From assembly GCA_963720155.1 (NCBI GenBank), contig CAVREP010000016.1:4847-68846 (forward strand): a stretch of 64,000 nucleotides of DNA, written 5' to 3'. The notes below the pieces were generated by a model. It ran no database searches. It was not told the DNA's origin and was given only the letters and a program-made list of their open reading frames with translations. Numbering within the stretch: position 1 is the stretch's first letter; every line of letters begins with the position of its first letter. The DNA is from an uncultured Acidobacteriota bacterium. Lineage in GTDB: Bacteria > Acidobacteriota > Terriglobia > Terriglobales > Acidobacteriaceae. Below, piece after piece: positions 45,183-51,836 of the stretch. Both the position numbers and the translations under genes were made by a program.

Positions 45183-46415
45183 ATGGACATTTCTAAAGTT
45201 GTCGTACGGTCGCACCGTATGAGGGCAGGCAGCGTGGCTCGGCATCTTATAATAAGGGCTTTGCCACCCAGCTTGCGGAAGTCGGTTACACATCCTTAAC
45301 GATCAACGATTTCCTGATCTCGGCCATCCATTTCGGCGCGTGGCTGGAGGTCAGCGGCCAGTCTTTAGACGAGGTTGGCAAGCTGACCGTTTTTGCATTT
45401 GGAGCGCATCGCTGCAAGTGTCCTGGGGGCCGCAGCCTGAAACGTGTTTCGCGACGTTTCACGGCACGTGTTCAGCGCTTCGTTGACTACCTGCAGCAAC
45501 AGGGAGCTATCAGCCCACTCACGAATTCAACAAGTGAGACTTCTGCGCCACTGAGCACGTTCCGCAACTGGCTTTTGAGTCATCGGGGATTGGCTATCTG
45601 TACGGTGAATCGTCACGAACGCCTTATCACGCAAATGCTACCCGCCCTTGGGGCGGACGCGGCCAACTATAACGCAGCTTCTGTAAGGAAGGTCATCCTA
45701 GACCGGATCCGTGGCTGTCGGCCCGATGGTGGTTTCTCTTCGTGTTTATTTGCGGTTTCTGGCGACCAGTGGTGCATGCCAGGCCGGTCTCGACCATGCA
45801 CTTCCGCCCGTGGCAGAGTGGAGACTCTCGTCATTACCGCGTTACCTCGATGCCGCGCAGGCAACTCGTCTCATTGACTCCTGTGGGAAGAACGGACCGC
45901 AAGGACTGCGGGACCGCGCCATCGTGCTATTGCTGATTCGGCTTGGACTACGAGCAGGAGACATTGCCGGTATGCGTCCAGGCGATATCAGCTGGCAGGA
46001 TGCAACTTTGCTGGTACGAGGCAAGGGACGCAGGGACGTCCGTCTACCTTTGCCACAGGACGCAGGGGACGCAGTTCTGGAGTACATGGAACGGGCACGA
46101 CCTCAGGTTGCTATTGACCGTGTGTTTCTGTGCGTAAACGCCCCATTCCGCCCGCTGGGATTTGGTTCTAACGTCTCGTGCATCGTTCGCGCTGCACTGC
46201 AACGGGCCGGGATCAAAAATCCCCCAACCTTTGGTGCGAACCTCCTCCGCCACACGGCAGCAACAACGATGCTTCGTGCGGGCTCGACTCTGTATGAGAT
46301 AGGTACGGTCCTCCGGCATAAGTCTCCCAACACGACAGCGCATTATGCCAAGGTGGACGTTGCGACACTTCAGCAAATCGCACAACCCTGGCCGAATGGG
46401 GAGGGAACATGTTGA
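45183..46415 (+). pseudogene. ritA: tyrosine recombinase RitA, two frameshifts
   Basis: MDISKVVVRS (ATG 45183), then a shift near 45210 to ..GFATQLAEVGYTSLTINDFL..RKVILDRIRGC, then a shift near 45715-45735 to MVVSLRVYLRFL..LLRHTAATTMLRAGSTLYEIGTVLRHKSPNTTAHYAKV. Colinear with the intact 412-aa RitA2. Confidence 0.8.
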
Positions 46416-47323
46416 GCGACGCTGTCACTCGCCACATCGAACTGCATCGCAGCATGGGATTCAAGTTCAGAGACGAGGCGTATATGCTCCGAGGTTTTGC
46501 CGCTTTCGCAGAAAGTCGGTCTGAACTTTTCGTTCGCACGGAAACAGTTCTGGAGTGGGCGGCCAGTGCGCCTTCGGTCAGTCGACGCCATGATCGCCTG
46601 CGCACCATCCGTCGTTTTGCATATGCCTTGATGACGGAAGACGACCGTCATCAGGTGCCACCGGACGATGCTTTTGGCCGCGCACAGAAGCGGCATCGAA
46701 AATGCCATATTTTTGTTCAGGACGAAATCAACCGCCTTCTGCGAGCCGCCGCACAACTGAAACCGAAGGGATCGATACGGCCAGCTACGTACGTCGCCTT
46801 GCTTTCGCTCATCGCGGCCACCGGACTCCGCGTTTCTGAAGCCTTAAAACTACAGGTGTCCGATATCACTGAAGACGGGTTGCTCATCCGTAAAACAAAA
46901 TTCCAAAAGAGCCGTTTGGTTCCTCTGCATGCGAGTGCGCATCAGGGATTGCGGCAGTATCTCGTCGCACGCGGGAGAATCAGGATAACCACACCGAATG
47001 TCTTCGTTTCCCAGCGCGGCGCTGCACTCCCGTACGATACGGTCAGCAAGACTTTCCTCAACTTGGCGCGATCAGAAGGCCTGCGCGAAGGTCCGGGGCA
47101 TGGCGGTTGTCATATTCACGATATTCGCCATACATTCGCCGTCAGGTCGCTCGAACAGTGTTCGAGCGACCGCAGAGCTGTCGCGCAACATATGGCCGCG
47201 CTGAGCACCTATCTAGGTCACGCTCATGTCTCCGATACGTATTGGTATCTGCAGGTCACGCCGAAGCTTCTGGGCGACATAGCACTGGCCGCTGAGATTC
47301 TACACAGGGGAGGTGAGCAATGA
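46409..47323 (+). CDS. ritB: tyrosine recombinase RitB
   Basis: 304 aa. LRVSEAL, HDIRHTFA, LGHAHVSDTYWYL. Overlaps the ritA1 stop, and its own stop overlaps the ritC1 ATG (ATGA). Confidence 0.85.
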   Translation: MLSDAVTRHIELHRSMGFKFRDEAYMLRGFAAFAESRSELFVRTETVLEWAASAPSVSRRHDRLRTIRRFAYALMTEDDRHQVPPDDAFGRAQKRHRKCHIFVQDEINRLLRAAAQLKPKGSIRPATYVALLSLIAATGLRVSEALKLQVSDITEDGLLIRKTKFQKSRLVPLHASAHQGLRQYLVARGRIRITTPNVFVSQRGAALPYDTVSKTFLNLARSEGLREGPGHGGCHIHDIRHTFAVRSLEQCSSDRRAVAQHMAALSTYLGHAHVSDTYWYLQVTPKLLGDIALAAEILHRGGEQ

Positions 47324-48099
47324 ATCCCCTCGGTCCGCACCTGACAGTATTCCTGCGCGAATACCTTCCAAGACAACGTGAAATGAGCGCACAAACGTCC
47401 GACACGTATGCGTATGCCTTCCAACTGCTGGTGTGTTTCGCTGCCAAGCGCCTGAAGACGACTCCTTCTAAGCTCTCCATCGAGCAACTCGATGCGACAC
47501 TCGTGTTGGCTTTCCTCGAAAGCCTCGAAAAAGAGCGGGGAAACTGCGCCAAAACACGCAACTCACGACTAGCCGCTGTCAAAACGTTCTTCCGTTTCCT
47601 GGAATACCGGTTACCGTCCTGCCTTGATCAGGCCCGACGAGTTCGCGCTATCCCGGTGAAGAAAACCGACGAGGTCATCGTCGGTTTTCTCAATCGCGAG
47701 GAGATCCAGGCTTTGTTGGATGCTCCTGATCCAAAATCCCGATACGGGTTGCGGGACCGCGCCATGCTTTATCTTGCCTATGCTTGCGGACTGCGTGTCT
47801 CGGAACTCGTCTGTCTACACATGGATGATTTAGCCTTCCATCCTCAACCGACGATTCATGTGATGGGAAAGGGCCGACGCGAGCGGGTGCTGCCGCTGTG
47901 GAAAGAGACAGCCATAGCGCTTCGGGATTGGGTTAAGGTGCGAGGCGAGACAAAAAGTGGAGCTATATTCCTGAACGCTGGTCACGAGGCTATGACCCGG
48001 TCGGGATTCGAATACATTCTGGCCAAGCACGTTCAGACTGCCAGCGTCAGGCAACCTTCGTTGACCAGAAAGCGAGTATCACCTCACATCATGCGACAC
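47320..48099 (+). pseudogene. ritC: tyrosine recombinase RitC, 5' part (interrupted by RIT2)
   Basis: Sensible up to ..VMGKGRRERVLPLWKET..KRVSPHIMRH (codon CAC 48097-48099). The following 45 codons are RIT2 end sequence. Confidence 0.85.
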
Positions 48100-48122
48100 T
48101 ATCTACCCTTCCTGACTATGTC
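48100..48122. repeat. RIT2 inverted repeat (ritC-proximal end)
   Basis: TATCTACCCTTCCTGACTATGTC, the exact reverse complement of 53176-53198. Confidence 0.9.
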
Positions 48123-48223
48123 GAGTGATATGGAGTGGTCTGGCGATCGTTCAATAATTGCAGACCCCAACGCAAATCGAGTCGATCAATCACCCGACAT
48201 AGTTTTCCCCGTTTTTCTCTGCT

Positions 48224-48644
48224 CTACAAACTATTGAGGAAGCCAAGCAGTTGGTCTCCCGGTTGGTAGCGCCCCGGTCTGCCGTGCGACGGTGATGTTT
48301 TGGCAAGGGCCCGCTCCTTCATTGCGAGTGTGGCTTCGAGATAAATCTGCGTGGTCTCCACCGACTCATGTCCGAGCCACAATGCAATAACGGAACGATC
48401 CACGCCCGCTGGTAGAAGGTCCATCGCCATCGTGTGCCTCAGGCGATGAACGGTGACCCGCTTTTCCTTCAACGACGGGCAGACTTTGGATGCTGTCGTG
48501 CGATGCTTGGTCAGCAGGTACTGCACACCGTGGACACTGAGACGTTCACCCTGAGCGCTGGGAAAGAGCAAGTCGTCGCCACCACGTTGCGGTTGTCGAA
48601 GCCAGGCTTTCAATACAGCGAGTGTGGATTGGGCAAGAGGTGTG
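48224..48644 (-). pseudogene. ritC: RitC2, 3' part
   Basis: ..CTPLAQSTLAVLKAWLRQ..KRVTVHRLRHTMAMDLLPAGVDRSVIALWLGHESVETTQIYL.. Continuous with 50318-50895 once 48645-50317 is removed. Confidence 0.85.
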
Positions 48645-49382
48645 GTGCAGCGATGCTAGCTGCCATTCTAGCGGGTGCAAGACCCGCCCGTGGAACTTGC
48701 CCAGTTGCCACGGTAGCAATATCCGGCGGTGAAACGGGAGACCAATTCACCGGAAGCCCGGAAGTAAAAGCCCCCGTTGGCCGAGCAGAGATGCTTGGTC
48801 GGATCCGCCAGGGGGGCAAACAACTCGACAGGTCGTAACGCAAGTGAACCGTAGTTAAGCTCCGAAATAGCCCCCCACGGGAAGCGGATTGTGGGAAATG
48901 ATGGAAGTGCCGAGTCGCTCACGCTATGACGAAGGCCAACGTCGACGGCGAAGGAACTGGGTACATGCAACCGTCGAACTTCCTGGAGTCGCAGAGGACG
49001 ACATGTTGAGACAGAATGGTCAGCGAAAGCACGGAACCACTCCCGGGTCGCCTAGGCGCACCCGCACAGCGAAGGCATCGCATATAAACCGCCCTGCGGC
49101 GAAACTGCGTTGTGCCCGAGAGTGGGACGGATGTGGCCGAATAAGTGTTGATGGACTGGGACAACATAACCCAGACCGGAGCGAGGGCCACTGGGGTAGA
49201 AGAGGGAACTCTTCGCATGGTGGTGTGTCGTTAGCCCCTCCTTCCCGACTCTGAGCGGGAGTTCAAGGAGTAGGCCCGATGCACGAAGGACAGAGGCAAA
49301 GCAAGCGAACCGCTGAGCATGCCGGGTGCAGGCTTAACCAGCGGGACGTGCGCGAAGGCGCTGTCTGACAGGCCAGCCTTTC

Positions 49383-49414
49383 AGCCGTACTGGGGTAAAC
49401 CCACTGTACGGAAT
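49383..49414 (+). ncRNA. group II intron domain V (outer copy)
   Basis: AGCCGUAC-UGGG-GUAAA-CCCA-CU-GUACGG. AGC triad at the 5' base and a 2-nt 3' bulge. Confidence 0.75.
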
Positions 49415-49440
49415 GATAGGGGGGACGGTGGAAACGTCGG

Positions 49441-50277
49441 GTGCAGCGATGCTAGTTGGCGTTCTAGCTGGTGAGAGTCCAGCCAGGGGAACTTGCCCAG
49501 TTGCCCCTGTAGTGATATCCGGCGGCGGAGCGGGTGACCAATCCGACCGGAAGCCCGGAAGTAAACGTCCACGTCGGCTGGGTGAAAACCTAGTCAGCTC
49601 CGACAGGTGGGCTAGCAAATCAGCAGGTTGTAGCGAAAGTGAACTGTAGGTAAACCTCGAAAACCACCGCCCCACGAGAATCGGAGGGTGGGGAGCCTCG
49701 GAAGTGCCGAGACGTCCGACGTAGTCGAAGGCCAGTGTTGTCGGTGAAGGAACTGGGTGCATGCAGCCGACAAACTTCCCGTGGTCGCAGGGGACGACAT
49801 GTTGATAGAGGACAGCCAACGAAAGCACGGAACCACTCGTGGGGCGCCTAGGCGCACCCGCACAGCGAAGGCATCGCCTATAAACCGCAAGCCGGCGAAA
49901 TGGCGGTGTACCCACGAGTGGGACGCATGAGGCCGATTAAGTGAGGATGGTCCGGGACAACATAACCCGGACCGGAGCGAGGGCCTCTGGGGTAGAGGAG
50001 ATTACTCCTCGCATGGCGGTGCATCTTTTAGCCATCCTTCCCGACACAGTGCGGGAGTTAAGGAGCATGGCCCGGATGCGCGAAGGACGGATGCAAAGCA
50101 GGCGTTGCGCTGGGTATGCCGGGTGCAGGCTTAACCAGTGGAGCGAGTGCCAAGGCGCTGTCTGATAGGCCAGCCTTCCAGCCGGACTGGGGAAAACCCG
50201 CTGTCCGGAATGATAGGGAGGACGATGGAAACATCGGCATCATTCGAAGCCCGATTAGCGCCATCGTCCTACCCGAC
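49441..50277 (+). mobile_element. ORF-less group II intron (inner, 837 nt) inserted in domain VI of the outer intron
   Basis: 5' GUGCAGCG. EBS1 CCGACGU and EBS2 CCACCG are perfectly complementary to the upstream flank. Domain V at 50180. Domain VI 50216-50228/50261-50274 with bulged A 50271. 3' ..ACCCGAC. Confidence 0.85.
50180..50211 (+). ncRNA. group II intron domain V (inner copy)
   Basis: AGCCGGAC-UGGG-GAAAA-CCCG-CU-GUCCGG. Compensatory change relative to the outer copy. Confidence 0.75.
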
Positions 50278-50317
50278 CATCATTCGAAGCCCGCTACGCG
50301 CCACTGTCCTACCCGAC

Positions 50318-50895
50318 CAGCGTTCTTTGCGGCCCTTGCCGATCACGCGCAGGTGAGCCCCAGTCCCAACGATGAGGTCCGCGCGTTTGAGACCGGTCAT
50401 TTCCGATAAGCGTAGGCCCGTCTGTACCGCCACGAGCAGAAAGGCGTGATCGCGCCGACCAGACCAGGTGAACTGATCCGGAGCGGCCAGCAAGGCATCG
50501 ACTTCGGGGCGAGTGAGGAACTGGACCAGGGTACGGGTGAAACGCTTGCTGGGGATGGCGAGCACACGCTGGATCTGTGCGGAATGGGCAGGCGACTCGA
50601 AAGCCGCGTATCGAAAGAAGGAGTGAATCGCTGTCAGGCGCAGATTACGACTGCGAATACTTACGCCTCGGTGCTTTTCCAGTTCATCCAAAAAAGCCAC
50701 GATCAGGGGGGCATCAATCTCCTCGAAGGTCAGGCGTGATGGCGGTTTGCGAAGCCGCTGCTGAACGAACTTCAGGAACTGTCGGAAGCAGTCGCGATAG
50801 GAACTGATGGTGTGTGGGCTCGCCTGACGCTGCTGCATCAAGCGCTGGGTAAAGAAACGCTGCAATAGGGGAGCCAAGCTGATGGGAGTGATCAT
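50318..50895 (-). pseudogene. ritC: RitC2, 5' part
   Basis: MITPISLAPLLQRFFTQRLMQQR..LRVIGKGRKER. ATG 50895 overlaps the ritB2 stop (ATGA). The frame runs into intron sequence after 50318. Confidence 0.85.
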
Positions 50896-51836
50896 GTCCG
50901 GTCCTCCCAGCGATGCTCGAGCCGGCGCATGGCTTCCCGCATCAACTCCGGAGAGCCGCTTAAATACCACTGCGTGTCCGCGACATGGACATGACCGAGG
51001 TAGGCGCACAAGATCGGCAGGAGGCGCTCTGGATCTTGGTTAGCCCGATACCACGTTACCAGCGTGTTGGTTGCGAATCGGTGTCTCATGTCATGCAGAC
51101 GTGGCCCGTGATGGTCGGATATGCCGCGCAGACCGATCTGCCGGGACAAGGCATAGAACGTTCTATGAATCTCTCCGCCATCCAAACGATTGCCCCAGTT
51201 GGAAACGAACCGGTAGGAGGAGACCTCTCGTCCCGCCCAATGACGTTGCCGTCGTGCGAGGTAGTCGGCAAGTACTTTGCAAGTCGATGCGTGCAAAGGC
51301 ACGAGTCGAGACTTGCCAAACTTGCCGCTGCGGATGGTCAACACCGCCGCCTTAAGATCCACGTCATGAAGCTCGAGACTGCGCGCTTCACCAAGGCGTA
51401 GGCCAGAGACACTCAGGAGTCCAAACAGACAATAGTAAGTCCAAGGTCGCAGTTTGCCGAGTTCACAACGACAGGGCATGTCGAGAGTAGCGCGCAGTAA
51501 ACGCCGAATTTCATCGTCCGAGTACAGGTAGGGCCGCGCTCGCCTCGGTCGAAATGGCAACAAGCCTTGGTGGGGAATCTGCGTTCGCGGATCGGTCGCA
51601 CTACGATGGCGGGCAAATCCACGAACGAAACTCAGCCGTTGCGCCCAGTGCGCGGGTTGGACGTTTATCGGTTGTTGAGCCCAAGCGAGCGCCAAGGCTG
51701 TGGTGATGTAGGAAGTGCGGTGGCGCTCCATGAAGGTGACGAAATCGAGCAATCCCTTGCCTGCATGCTGCAGCTTGAACCCCAAGCTACGGCGCAGACT
51801 CAGGTATTCTTGAACGGCCTGTCGAAGCGTGTTCAT
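50892..51836 (-). CDS. ritB: tyrosine recombinase RitB2
   Basis: MNTLRQAVQEYL from ATG 51836 (ATGA overlap with the ritA2 stop). LRLGEA, HDMRHRFA, LGHVHVADTQWYL. Confidence 0.85.
   Translation of the reverse strand: MNTLRQAVQEYLSLRRSLGFKLQHAGKGLLDFVTFMERHRTSYITTALALAWAQQPINVQPAHWAQRLSFVRGFARHRSATDPRTQIPHQGLLPFRPRRARPYLYSDDEIRRLLRATLDMPCRCELGKLRPWTYYCLFGLLSVSGLRLGEARSLELHDVDLKAAVLTIRSGKFGKSRLVPLHASTCKVLADYLARRQRHWAGREVSSYRFVSNWGNRLDGGEIHRTFYALSRQIGLRGISDHHGPRLHDMRHRFATNTLVTWYRANQDPERLLPILCAYLGHVHVADTQWYLSGSPELMREAMRRLEHRWEDRT

Follow-up and report, generated by a model that had tools for sequence, protein, structure and literature searches.

A twintron made up of two group II introns that lack ORFs, from an Acidobacteriota genome: a sibling intron nested in domain VI

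What do two adjacent, nearly identical 40-nt units at the 3' end of a group II intron represent? The question is raised by a locus in a stretch of 64,000 nucleotides (64 kb; hereinafter the window) from an uncultured Acidobacteriota bacterium of the Acidobacteriaceae (assembly GCA_963720155.1, contig CAVREP010000016.1, positions 4,847 to 68,846). The original prediction held that the apparent repeat consists of two domain VI (D6) 3' strands brought together by insertion of one intron into another. We find that the region 48645-50317 on the plus strand is a twintron of two group II introns that lack open reading frames (ORFs) and are ~80% identical overall, and that the apparent 40-nt tandem repeat is formed by the 3' halves of two D6 hairpins, one per intron. 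The nested-intron reading as a whole, namely an outer intron followed by a sibling inner intron that homed into the D6 of the outer one, appears highly probable. The elements of the twintron are the following (minimum free energy is abbreviated MFE; D5, domain V).

48645-49440 joined to 50278-50317, plus strand: outer intron, reconstructed, 836 nt
48645-49440, plus strand: outer intron 5' segment (domains I to V and the 5' half of D6), 796 nt, begins GUGCAGCGA; RF02003 match at 48669-48843, 78.3 bits
49383-49413, plus strand: outer D5, AG-CCGUAC-UGGG-GUAAA-CCCA-[CU]-GUACGG-AA, from the MFE fold
49419-49440, plus strand: 5' half of the outer D6, made up of the basal strand GGGGGGACGGUGG (49419-49431) and AAACGUCGG
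49441-50277, plus strand: inner intron, complete, 837 nt, GUGCAGCGA...CCUACCCGAC; RF02003 match at 49465-49638, 70.1 bits; in one clade with 13 metagenomic introns inserted in D6
50180-50210, plus strand: inner D5, from the MFE fold of D5-D6 (z = -5.5)
50216-50277, plus strand: inner D6, 62 nt, with the 5' strand at 50216-50228, its own loop AAACAUCGG and the 3' unit at 50238-50277 (repeat copy 1)
50271, plus strand: inner branch A, bulged, 7 nt from the 3' end
50278-50317, plus strand: outer D6 3' half (repeat copy 2) and end of the outer intron, CAUCAUUCGAAGCCCGCUACGCG plus CCACUGUCCU-A(50311)-CCC-GAC
50311, plus strand: outer branch A, bulged, 7 nt from the 3' end
D6 junction once the inner intron is excised: GGAAACGUCGG^CAUCAUUCG
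Exon junction once the outer intron is excised: ...GAGGUGUG^CAGCGUU...

The presence of two intron copies is apparent from several independent comparisons. An Rfam search of the window yielded two matches to RF02003 (group-II-D1D4-4) on the plus strand, 796 nt apart and both above the gathering score (49), and no other match; a search for direct repeats detected four long blocks repeated with a spacing of 796-797 nt. In the pairwise alignment between the outer intron and the inner one, both copies start at GUGCAGCGAUGC; the alignment of copy 1 reaches ...GGAAACGUCGG and stops exactly at 49440, and copy 2 continues with CAUCAUUCGAAG...CCUACCCGAC. The predicted 40-nt direct repeat is real: Tandem Repeats Finder reports a single array between 48000 and 52000, at 50238-50319 (period 40, 2.0 copies, 88% matches, score 129), and the units 50238-50277 and 50278-50317 are identical in 35 of 40 positions. 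The 5' half of the outer D6 is separated from its own 3' half by the 837 nt of the inner intron. The insertion had been placed in the apical loop of the outer D6; the break between G49440 and C50278 indeed lies within the distal D6 hairpin, but not in a strictly unpaired loop: a short distal helix is predicted here, and the break falls at the 3' edge of its 5' strand. The intron termini are the same in all 59 copies compared (5' GUGCA(G), where position 5 is A instead of G, and 3' ..GAC).

Both branch-point helices pair as originally proposed. In the inner D6, GGGAGGACGAUGG (50216-50228) and CCAUCGUCCU-A-CCC (50261-50274) form 13 of 13 Watson-Crick pairs, and in the outer D6, over ~870 nt, GGGGGGACGGUGG (49419-49431) and CCACUGUCCU-A-CCC (50301-50314) are paired at 13 of 13 positions, two of which are G.U. 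When the inner intron (49441-50277) is deleted in silico, an 836-nt outer intron results that is 95-98% identical to uninterrupted copies in metagenome-assembled genomes (MAGs) of Acidobacteriota (L010, L014, L048, L062, L073, L074, and L092), and its 3' region folds into a D5 hairpin and a D6 of 62 nt, in which the basal helix measures 13 bp and an A is bulged 7 nt before the 3' end; architecture and length are those of the inner D6. The z-scores of the D5-D6 folds are -3.8 for the outer and -5.5 for the inner intron.

The comparison with homologous introns supports the interpretation of the repeat as two D6 3' strands, against an internal duplication, as had been claimed: in the homologues, 141 of 141 uninterrupted D6 copies (47 distinct sequences) carry a single unit. 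Homologues were collected by scanning one genome per species with the pattern CGGAATGATAGGGN8GGAAACNTCGG, which yielded at least 119 stretches; all of the ~123 D6 5' halves among the matches listed are directly followed by one CAUCAU...CCUACCCGAC unit. A single unit is present also in a 5'-truncated homologue with 72% identity on Bradyrhizobium plasmids (four records, the only matches in a BLAST search of plasmids). Copy 2 of the repeat has the same sequence as the unit in relatives without an interruption (L003, L010, L014, L017, L046, L048, and others); copy 1 does not. Conservation of the outer D6 pairing was assessed in an alignment of 34 distinct D6 sequences, among them the outer D6 as reconstructed for the window and for eight other twintrons. 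The basal helix proved to be conserved, with 98.9% of the alignment cells paired and compensatory changes on both sides in 6 of the 13 pairs; none of 500 shuffles matched either the observed covariation score or the percentage paired, and every slid register drops to 33-53% paired.

How the inner intron came to occupy this site is suggested by its exon-binding sites (EBS), which pair with the intron-binding sites (IBS) of the target. The EBS were located by alignment of 59 distinct full-length copies beside their flanking exons, using covariation across ~10 target classes. Thus, EBS1 and exon change together across the family (GGUCAU with AUGACC, CAGAUC with GAUCUG, and CUACUC with GAGUAG), and so do EBS2 and exon (CGACCG with CGGUCG, and GACGUG with CACGUC). 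The EBS3 column, intron position 347, has G in 41 of the 42 copies with a +1 C in the 3' exon, and where +1 is U it has A in 15 of the 16 copies; the nucleotide 5' of EBS1 shows no covariation. This covariation of a domain I (D1) column with +1 identifies an EBS3 of the IIB type, and the introns are IIB-like. The assignments in the window are as follows.

49664-49669, plus strand: inner EBS2, CCACCG; 6 of 6 Watson-Crick pairs with IBS2 CGGUGG at 49426-49431 (outer D6 5' strand)
49716-49722, plus strand: inner EBS1, CCGACGU; 7 of 7 Watson-Crick pairs with IBS1 ACGUCGG at 49434-49440 (outer D6)
49787, plus strand: inner EBS3, G; pairs with C50278 (+1)
48868-48873, plus strand: outer EBS2, UAGCCC; column covaries with IBS2 in the 59 copies
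48920-48925, plus strand: outer EBS1, CACGCU; column covaries with IBS1 in the 59 copies, ~10 target classes
48991, plus strand: outer EBS3, G; pairs with C50318 (+1)
48631-48644, plus strand: outer 5' exon, IBS2-like GGGCAA (48631-48636) and IBS1 GGUGUG (48639-48644)

The complementarity of all three inner EBS to the outer D6 is exact, in agreement with the proposal that the target of the inner intron was part of a sibling intron. Retrohoming by reverse splicing followed by reverse transcription is the established mechanism of group II intron mobility, and the exact inner junctions that lack a target duplication, together with the EBS match, indicate that the inner intron arrived in this way. 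The outer intron fits its own site less well: IBS1 matches EBS1 CACGCU at 6 of 6 positions if G.U pairs are included, and IBS2 is a partial match shifted by one nucleotide. Given that close relatives of the outer intron use GGGCUG-GCG-GGCGUG/C (here and below, the slash marks the insertion point), of which the site in the window, GGGCAA..GGUGUG/C, is an imperfect version, the outer intron looks like an ectopic insertion.

The D6 insertion is not confined to the window. Metagenome contigs were scanned for the 3' junction ACCCNACCATCATNCGAAG, a 17-base pattern, which returned 77 stretches; 48 of these were discarded on context as chance matches, and the remaining 29 likewise have two D6 3' units in tandem, and the sequences downstream of these make up at least 15 different contexts. 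A complete inner intron of 832-837 nt, inserted at GGAAAC(N)NCGG/GUGCAG, is present in 15 contigs, and in 13 of these both D6 halves are readable, with the insertion at GGAAACNNCGG/.../CAUCAU. These metagenomic inner introns are ~95% identical to each other, 85.5% identical to the inner intron of the window and ~80% identical to the outer type. In a neighbor-joining tree built on identity distances without bootstrap support, they form, together with the inner intron of the window, one clade that is the sister group of the outer-type clade, and their host introns fall into three different branches of the family. The recognition elements of the homing introns (hereinafter homers) follow the sequence of the host D6, both in EBS1 (CCGACGU with ACGUCGG; CCGCCGU with ACGGCGG in L123 and L145) and in EBS2 (CCAUCG with CGAUGG, CCACCG with CGGUGG, and CCAUGG with CCAUGG). 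Across 13 twintrons, the outer 5' strand forms 12-13 of 13 pairs with unit 2 but 8-12 of 13 with unit 1, whereas for the inner strand unit 1 is the better partner. The inner intron belongs to a clade whose heritable target is the conserved D6 site of sibling introns.

Other loci with this clade show signs of turnover. Homers that are truncated at the 5' end and retain an intact 3' junction (L125/L153, L129, and L155, with starts at intron positions 136, 411, and 514) are what abortive reverse transcription in the course of retromobility would be expected to leave. In L181, there are three tandem D6 3' units; the middle one (CCACCACCUU type) is an orphan, flanked by the unit that belongs to the inner intron and by the outer unit, an arrangement consistent with three nested introns that later recombined with one another. 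L176 contains a rearranged pair (473-1813), a full homer that abuts a second homer copy beginning at position 327. Two D6 matches 672 nt apart in L009/L115 resembled a second kind of nesting; this locus ends before the putative outer 5' part. In all members of the D6-homing clade, the intron's own D6 loop differs from its target: the loops AUCGG (in the window), GGCGG, AGCGG, GCCGG, and GAACGG replace GUCGG, each with at least one internal mismatch to the homer's own EBS1. Judging from the sequences, we infer that the altered loop would limit self-invasion, drift being an equal alternative.

The twintron is located within a tyrosine recombinase gene.

48224-51009, minus strand: host gene, the third tyrosine recombinase of a recombinase-in-trio set, split into 51009-50318 and 48644-48224

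Both halves of this gene contain Phage_integrase and SAM-like domains (Pfam), and removal of 48645-50317 restores a single host ORF that aligns without gaps across the junction with the paralogue 47320-48237 and shows no target duplication. Two recombinase-in-trio sets converge here, 45711-48237 on the plus strand and 53071-48224 on the minus strand, each with three tandem tyrosine recombinase genes; the stop-proximal ends of the third genes overlap by 14 bp (48224-48237).

Four alternative explanations of the locus have to be weighed. An internal tandem duplication of the D6 3' half by slippage within one intron, possibly with alternative 3' splice sites as in Clostridium tetani C.te.I1, would account for the adjacency of the two units, their identity in 35 of 40 positions and the fact that both end in ACCCGAC with a bulged A and either can pair with either 5' strand. 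Nevertheless, this explanation is very improbable given the single unit in 141 of 141 uninterrupted D6 copies (47 distinct sequences), the presence of an orphaned 5' half of D6 (49419-49440) that lies upstream by exactly the length of one intron, the match of unit 2 but not unit 1 to the units of outer-type relatives, the fact that D5 is not repeated and the preference of each 5' strand for its own unit in the 13 other twintrons. A 3' extension similar to that of Bacillus cereus B.c.I4 was also considered and was rejected along with internal duplication and alternative 3' sites of the C.te.I1 kind. An assembly chimera of two dispersed copies would be conceivable in that the source is a metagenome assembly and the family is highly repetitive, with many contigs of one MAG ending inside an intron; however, both junctions join non-homologous sequences (a D6 half and an intron terminus) that shared k-mers could not create, the junction lies exactly where the inner EBS predict, the same architecture is seen in 29 independent contigs from other projects and the host ORF is restored precisely, so that the probability of a chimera is close to negligible. 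A one-off ectopic retrotransposition into a site that is similar by chance, without dedicated D6 specificity, would agree with the observations that none of the ~123 D6 5' halves among the genome-scan matches listed is interrupted and that no second close copy of the window's inner intron (at least 88% identity) was found. The genome-scan pattern, however, is blind to most D6 twintrons, and the perfect match of three recognition elements (6+7+1 positions), the location of the nearest relatives (85.5% identity, one clade) in the same D6 site at at least 15 loci and the covariation of EBS1 and EBS2 with host D6 variants make a one-off event improbable.

The nested arrangement could also be real but dead, a 'zombie' or fossil twintron in which neither intron is transcribed or spliced and which persists as a scar in a disrupted mobile-element gene. 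We consider this explanation rather unlikely. The twintron (plus strand) is antisense to the host recombinase gene (minus strand), so that the introns cannot be spliced from the host mRNA, the host gene is inactivated and splicing is not under selection. No promoter-like site lies near the twintron, where a promoter and terminator scan gave nothing above the expectation from shuffled sequence, and no reverse transcriptase (RT) was detected in the window with tblastn and a group II RT query. Several further observations limit the nested-homing interpretation itself. RF00029, the D5/D6 model, has no match in 47500-51500 even at E<=10; the D5 is atypical, and D5 and D6 were accordingly delimited by folding and covariation. 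The catalytic competence of the introns is thus an assumption from recent mobility, their self-splicing is suggested by precise, duplication-free insertions, and splicing at this locus, with the inner intron first, is at this stage plausible. Moreover, in the window the outer 5' strand pairs 13 of 13 with the inner unit as well, a chimeric D6 consisting of the outer 5' strand and the inner unit folds at -30 kcal/mol, and the distal D6 helix is invariant and hence lacks covariation support. Because the outer strand pairs with either unit, pairing alone within the window cannot assign the units to the introns; the assignment follows from the nesting order, the 95-98% identity of the outer intron to full-length relatives and the single-unit D6 of the family, and the unit preference in the 13 twintrons supplies the discrimination that the window lacks. 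The frequencies of nesting are biased as well, given that the genome scan needed J5/6 (the D5-D6 junction) AAUGAUA and NUCGG and the metagenome scan needed the twintron junction. A dead twintron is further compatible with the decay at other loci (5'-truncated inner copies, internal deletions, and orphan units) and with the existence of documented zombie twintrons (PMC7049729). Conversely, both copies in the window retain intact 5' and 3' ends, D5, the bulged A and perfect EBS/IBS pairing, the differences between them in D5 and D6 are compensatory, and copies of the outer intron in other genomes are 95-98% identical to it, which suggests recent activity.

Under the nested-homing interpretation, the sequence of events can be reconstructed. 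An ORF-less IIB-like outer intron, from a family of ~820-837 nt introns common in soil Acidobacteriota and Alphaproteobacteria, inserted antisense into the tyrosine recombinase gene. A related ORF-less inner intron then retrohomed into the outer D6, its EBS2, EBS1, and EBS3 pairing with the D6 5' strand and the distal hairpin (CGGUGG-aa-ACGUCGG/C) and reverse splicing occurring between G49440 and C50278. The outcome is a split outer D6, with the outer 3' half directly following the inner intron's own D6 3' half and creating the apparent repeat. The altered homer loop (AUCGG or GGCGG vs GUCGG) would protect the homer lineage from self-invasion.

The outer D6 5' strand contains the inner IBS2 and adjoins the inner IBS1. 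As long as the inner intron is present, its EBS2 and EBS1 would compete for this strand and the branch helix would be split, such that the outer intron would neither branch nor splice before excision of the inner one. Given the split branch helix and the competition between the inner EBS-IBS pairing and the outer D6, prior excision of the inner intron is likely needed for outer branching. The stronger claim that the outer branch-point helix can form only after removal of the inner intron is overstated and should be regarded as a hypothesis, since a helix with a distal interruption can in principle still close around an insert that is compactly folded. Twintrons are known in which splicing proceeds with the inner intron in place ('zombie' twintrons, PMC7049729).

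Given that no RT is present in the window, mobilization by an RT supplied in trans can be inferred, and at other loci, family copies are found beside or inside RT-encoding group II introns. In L073 (4300-4460), L010, and L092, outer-type copies interrupt the coding region for the N-terminus of a putative intron-encoded protein (IEP; ...SQGLAGV/RKAAGN...), which lies downstream of a D1D4-6-type ribozyme 5' part; this interruption of an ORF parallels the homing into intron ORFs in Thermosynechococcus elongatus and Methanosarcina acetivorans (see below). The downstream RT ORF in L073 appears to be degenerate. Another target class (...GAAGGAGUAG/CGA...) is located at the 5' part of a D1D4-6 intron. 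L189 combines three introns in one locus: an RT-encoding D1D4-4-type intron (128-2130) resides in the J5/6 of a family intron, and the latter hosts a D6 homer as well. The RT ORF of this intron (576-1949) matches TIGR04416 with 374 bits, and the intron itself matches RF02003 with 113.8 bits and RF00029 with 38 bits; its 5' end is GCGCGAC, not GUGCG. In L169, a family intron that ends in ...CCGAC directly precedes AAUUUUAGGG. L189 and L169 suggest that J5/6 is a second target within introns, and by analogy the arrangement suggests layered parasitism with mobilization in trans.

A broader synthesis of these observations can be put forward as a possibility that we hold with less than even confidence. 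It states that the homers are dedicated to the D6 of sibling ORF-less introns, that some siblings home into the IEP frame or the D1 of RT-encoding introns, that the branching and mobility of the host are gated by excision of the guest, that an arms race ensued and that the family is invisible to surveys based on RT or RF00029. Signs of such an arms race are the mutation of the homers' own D6 site relative to their own EBS1 and the compensatory EBS1 variant CCGCCGU, which invades hosts with the 'resistant' GGCGG loop.

Introns that home into introns, as well as twintrons, are already known; the new element here is the D6-dedicated lineage. No published description of such a homing lineage, of the ORF-less family or of group-II-D1D4-4 was found in the open-access literature. 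One of the closest known systems is T. elongatus, where ORF-less TeI3/F3 introns are inserted in TeI4/F1 introns (Mohr et al., 2010; PMC2882425). There, the inner copies are near-identical and the outer ones diverged, the IEP acts in trans, as mobilization in trans has been shown experimentally, and proliferation proceeds via twintron formation (PMC2882425). Both systems involve an ORF-less lineage that evolved to insert at a conserved site of a related mobile group II intron. However, the T. elongatus site lies in domain IV (DIV), a structurally tolerant domain, between the first and the second ATG of the IEP ORF of an RT-encoding host, whereas here it lies in the distal hairpin of D6, the domain with the branch point, of an ORF-less host; furthermore, the T. 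elongatus system is backed by experimental evidence, whereas the D6 twintron is known from sequence.

In M. acetivorans, nested introns reside in intron ORFs (Dai and Zimmerly, 2003, as summarized in PMC4424553). According to this summary, that system likewise involves repeated site-specific homing into related introns with no coding exons to protect, and its nested arrays are balanced by recombinational deletion, to which the three units of L181 and the rearranged pair of L176 can be likened; the target there is an intron ORF, whereas here a ribozyme helix is targeted and neither partner has an ORF. The Trichodesmium erythraeum twintron has the inner intron in D1, both introns encode IEPs and the host gene is protein-coding (Pfreundt and Hess, 2015; PMC4649490), and the Euglena chloroplast twintrons consist of degenerate organellar introns (Copertino and Hallick, 1993, cited in PMC4424553). 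As in the window, the inner intron in these twintrons breaks a functional ribozyme domain, with sequential splicing expected or shown there; neither is described as a D6-dedicated lineage. The plant (lycophyte) mitochondrial 'zombie' twintron cox1i1149g2 arose when an intron invaded itself (Zumkeller et al., 2020; PMC7049729), and thus its inner and outer introns, similarly to ours, are paralogues of one family. In that case, however, the insertion is in DIV, the inner intron lacks the bulged A and is not spliced, and the outer one splices regardless, whereas here the insertion is in D6 and both copies look intact. Finally, the D5/6 repeats of C. tetani C.te.I1 and the 3' extension of B. cereus B.c.I4 (PMC3919590, PMC1865049) resemble the locus described here in having an additional D6-like sequence downstream of the D6 of a group II intron, but these extras belong to one intron, whereas here the extra sequence is the displaced 3' half of a second intron, the 5' half of which is located 837 nt upstream.

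The significance of the system is that an entire lineage is directed at the branch-point domain of siblings without protein genes, whereas the known bacterial and archaeal homers target the tolerant DIV/ORF region. It would be a natural system in which the catalytic domain of one ribozyme is gated by the excision of another, and it offers a readable record of EBS-target co-evolution between two intron lineages. Surveys by RT ORF or RF00029 would miss this large ORF-less soil family (at least 119 stretches in species-representative genomes); if so, the supposed rarity of bacterial group II introns lacking ORFs rests on surveys blind to a family with an atypical D5.

The family itself was delineated by BLAST mapping, which identified ~70 full-length relatives of 797-841 nt, all of which begin with GUGCAGCGA, end with ACCCGAC and have no ORF; they come from Alphaproteobacteria of soil (Xanthobacteraceae, Bradyrhizobium) and from Acidobacteriota MAGs. 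The 95-98% identity of the outer intron to such MAG copies makes an acidobacterial origin of the window probable. The atypical D5 has a canonical helix and bulge, with a stem of 6+4 bp and 2 nt bulged on the 3' side, and AGC at the 5' base, where A and G face AA rather than UU, and its helix shows compensatory differences between the outer and inner copies. HYER, a protein-free ribozyme, was considered as a description of the family and rejected, as it concerns a different intron. In the proteobacterial MAG YF1.bin4, at least 12 contigs (including L004, L006, L019, L027, L029, L030, L032, L034, and L067) begin or end inside the intron, 24-55 nt from the D6 match; evidently, the family is a high-copy repeat that breaks short-read assemblies.

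Two further target classes are of note. In Alphaproteobacteria, copies at the site ...CACGUCCGGAUCUG/UG... (L022, L036, L038, L046, L078, L096, L100, and others) are directly followed by GC-rich hairpins, for example GGGGGGCGCTCAGCAATGAGCGTCCCT, and introns of this class may home beside or into a repeated palindromic element. In Bradyrhizobium, copies occupy the conserved site ...GUGGGAGC/CGGGGGCGGGCGACCGCC..., and a cobalamin riboswitch (RF00174, with 130 bits in L002) follows ~200 nt downstream; the copies are L002 (3001-3377 and 3579-3778), L071, L084, L090, L104, L118, and L119, one of them truncated at the 5' end.

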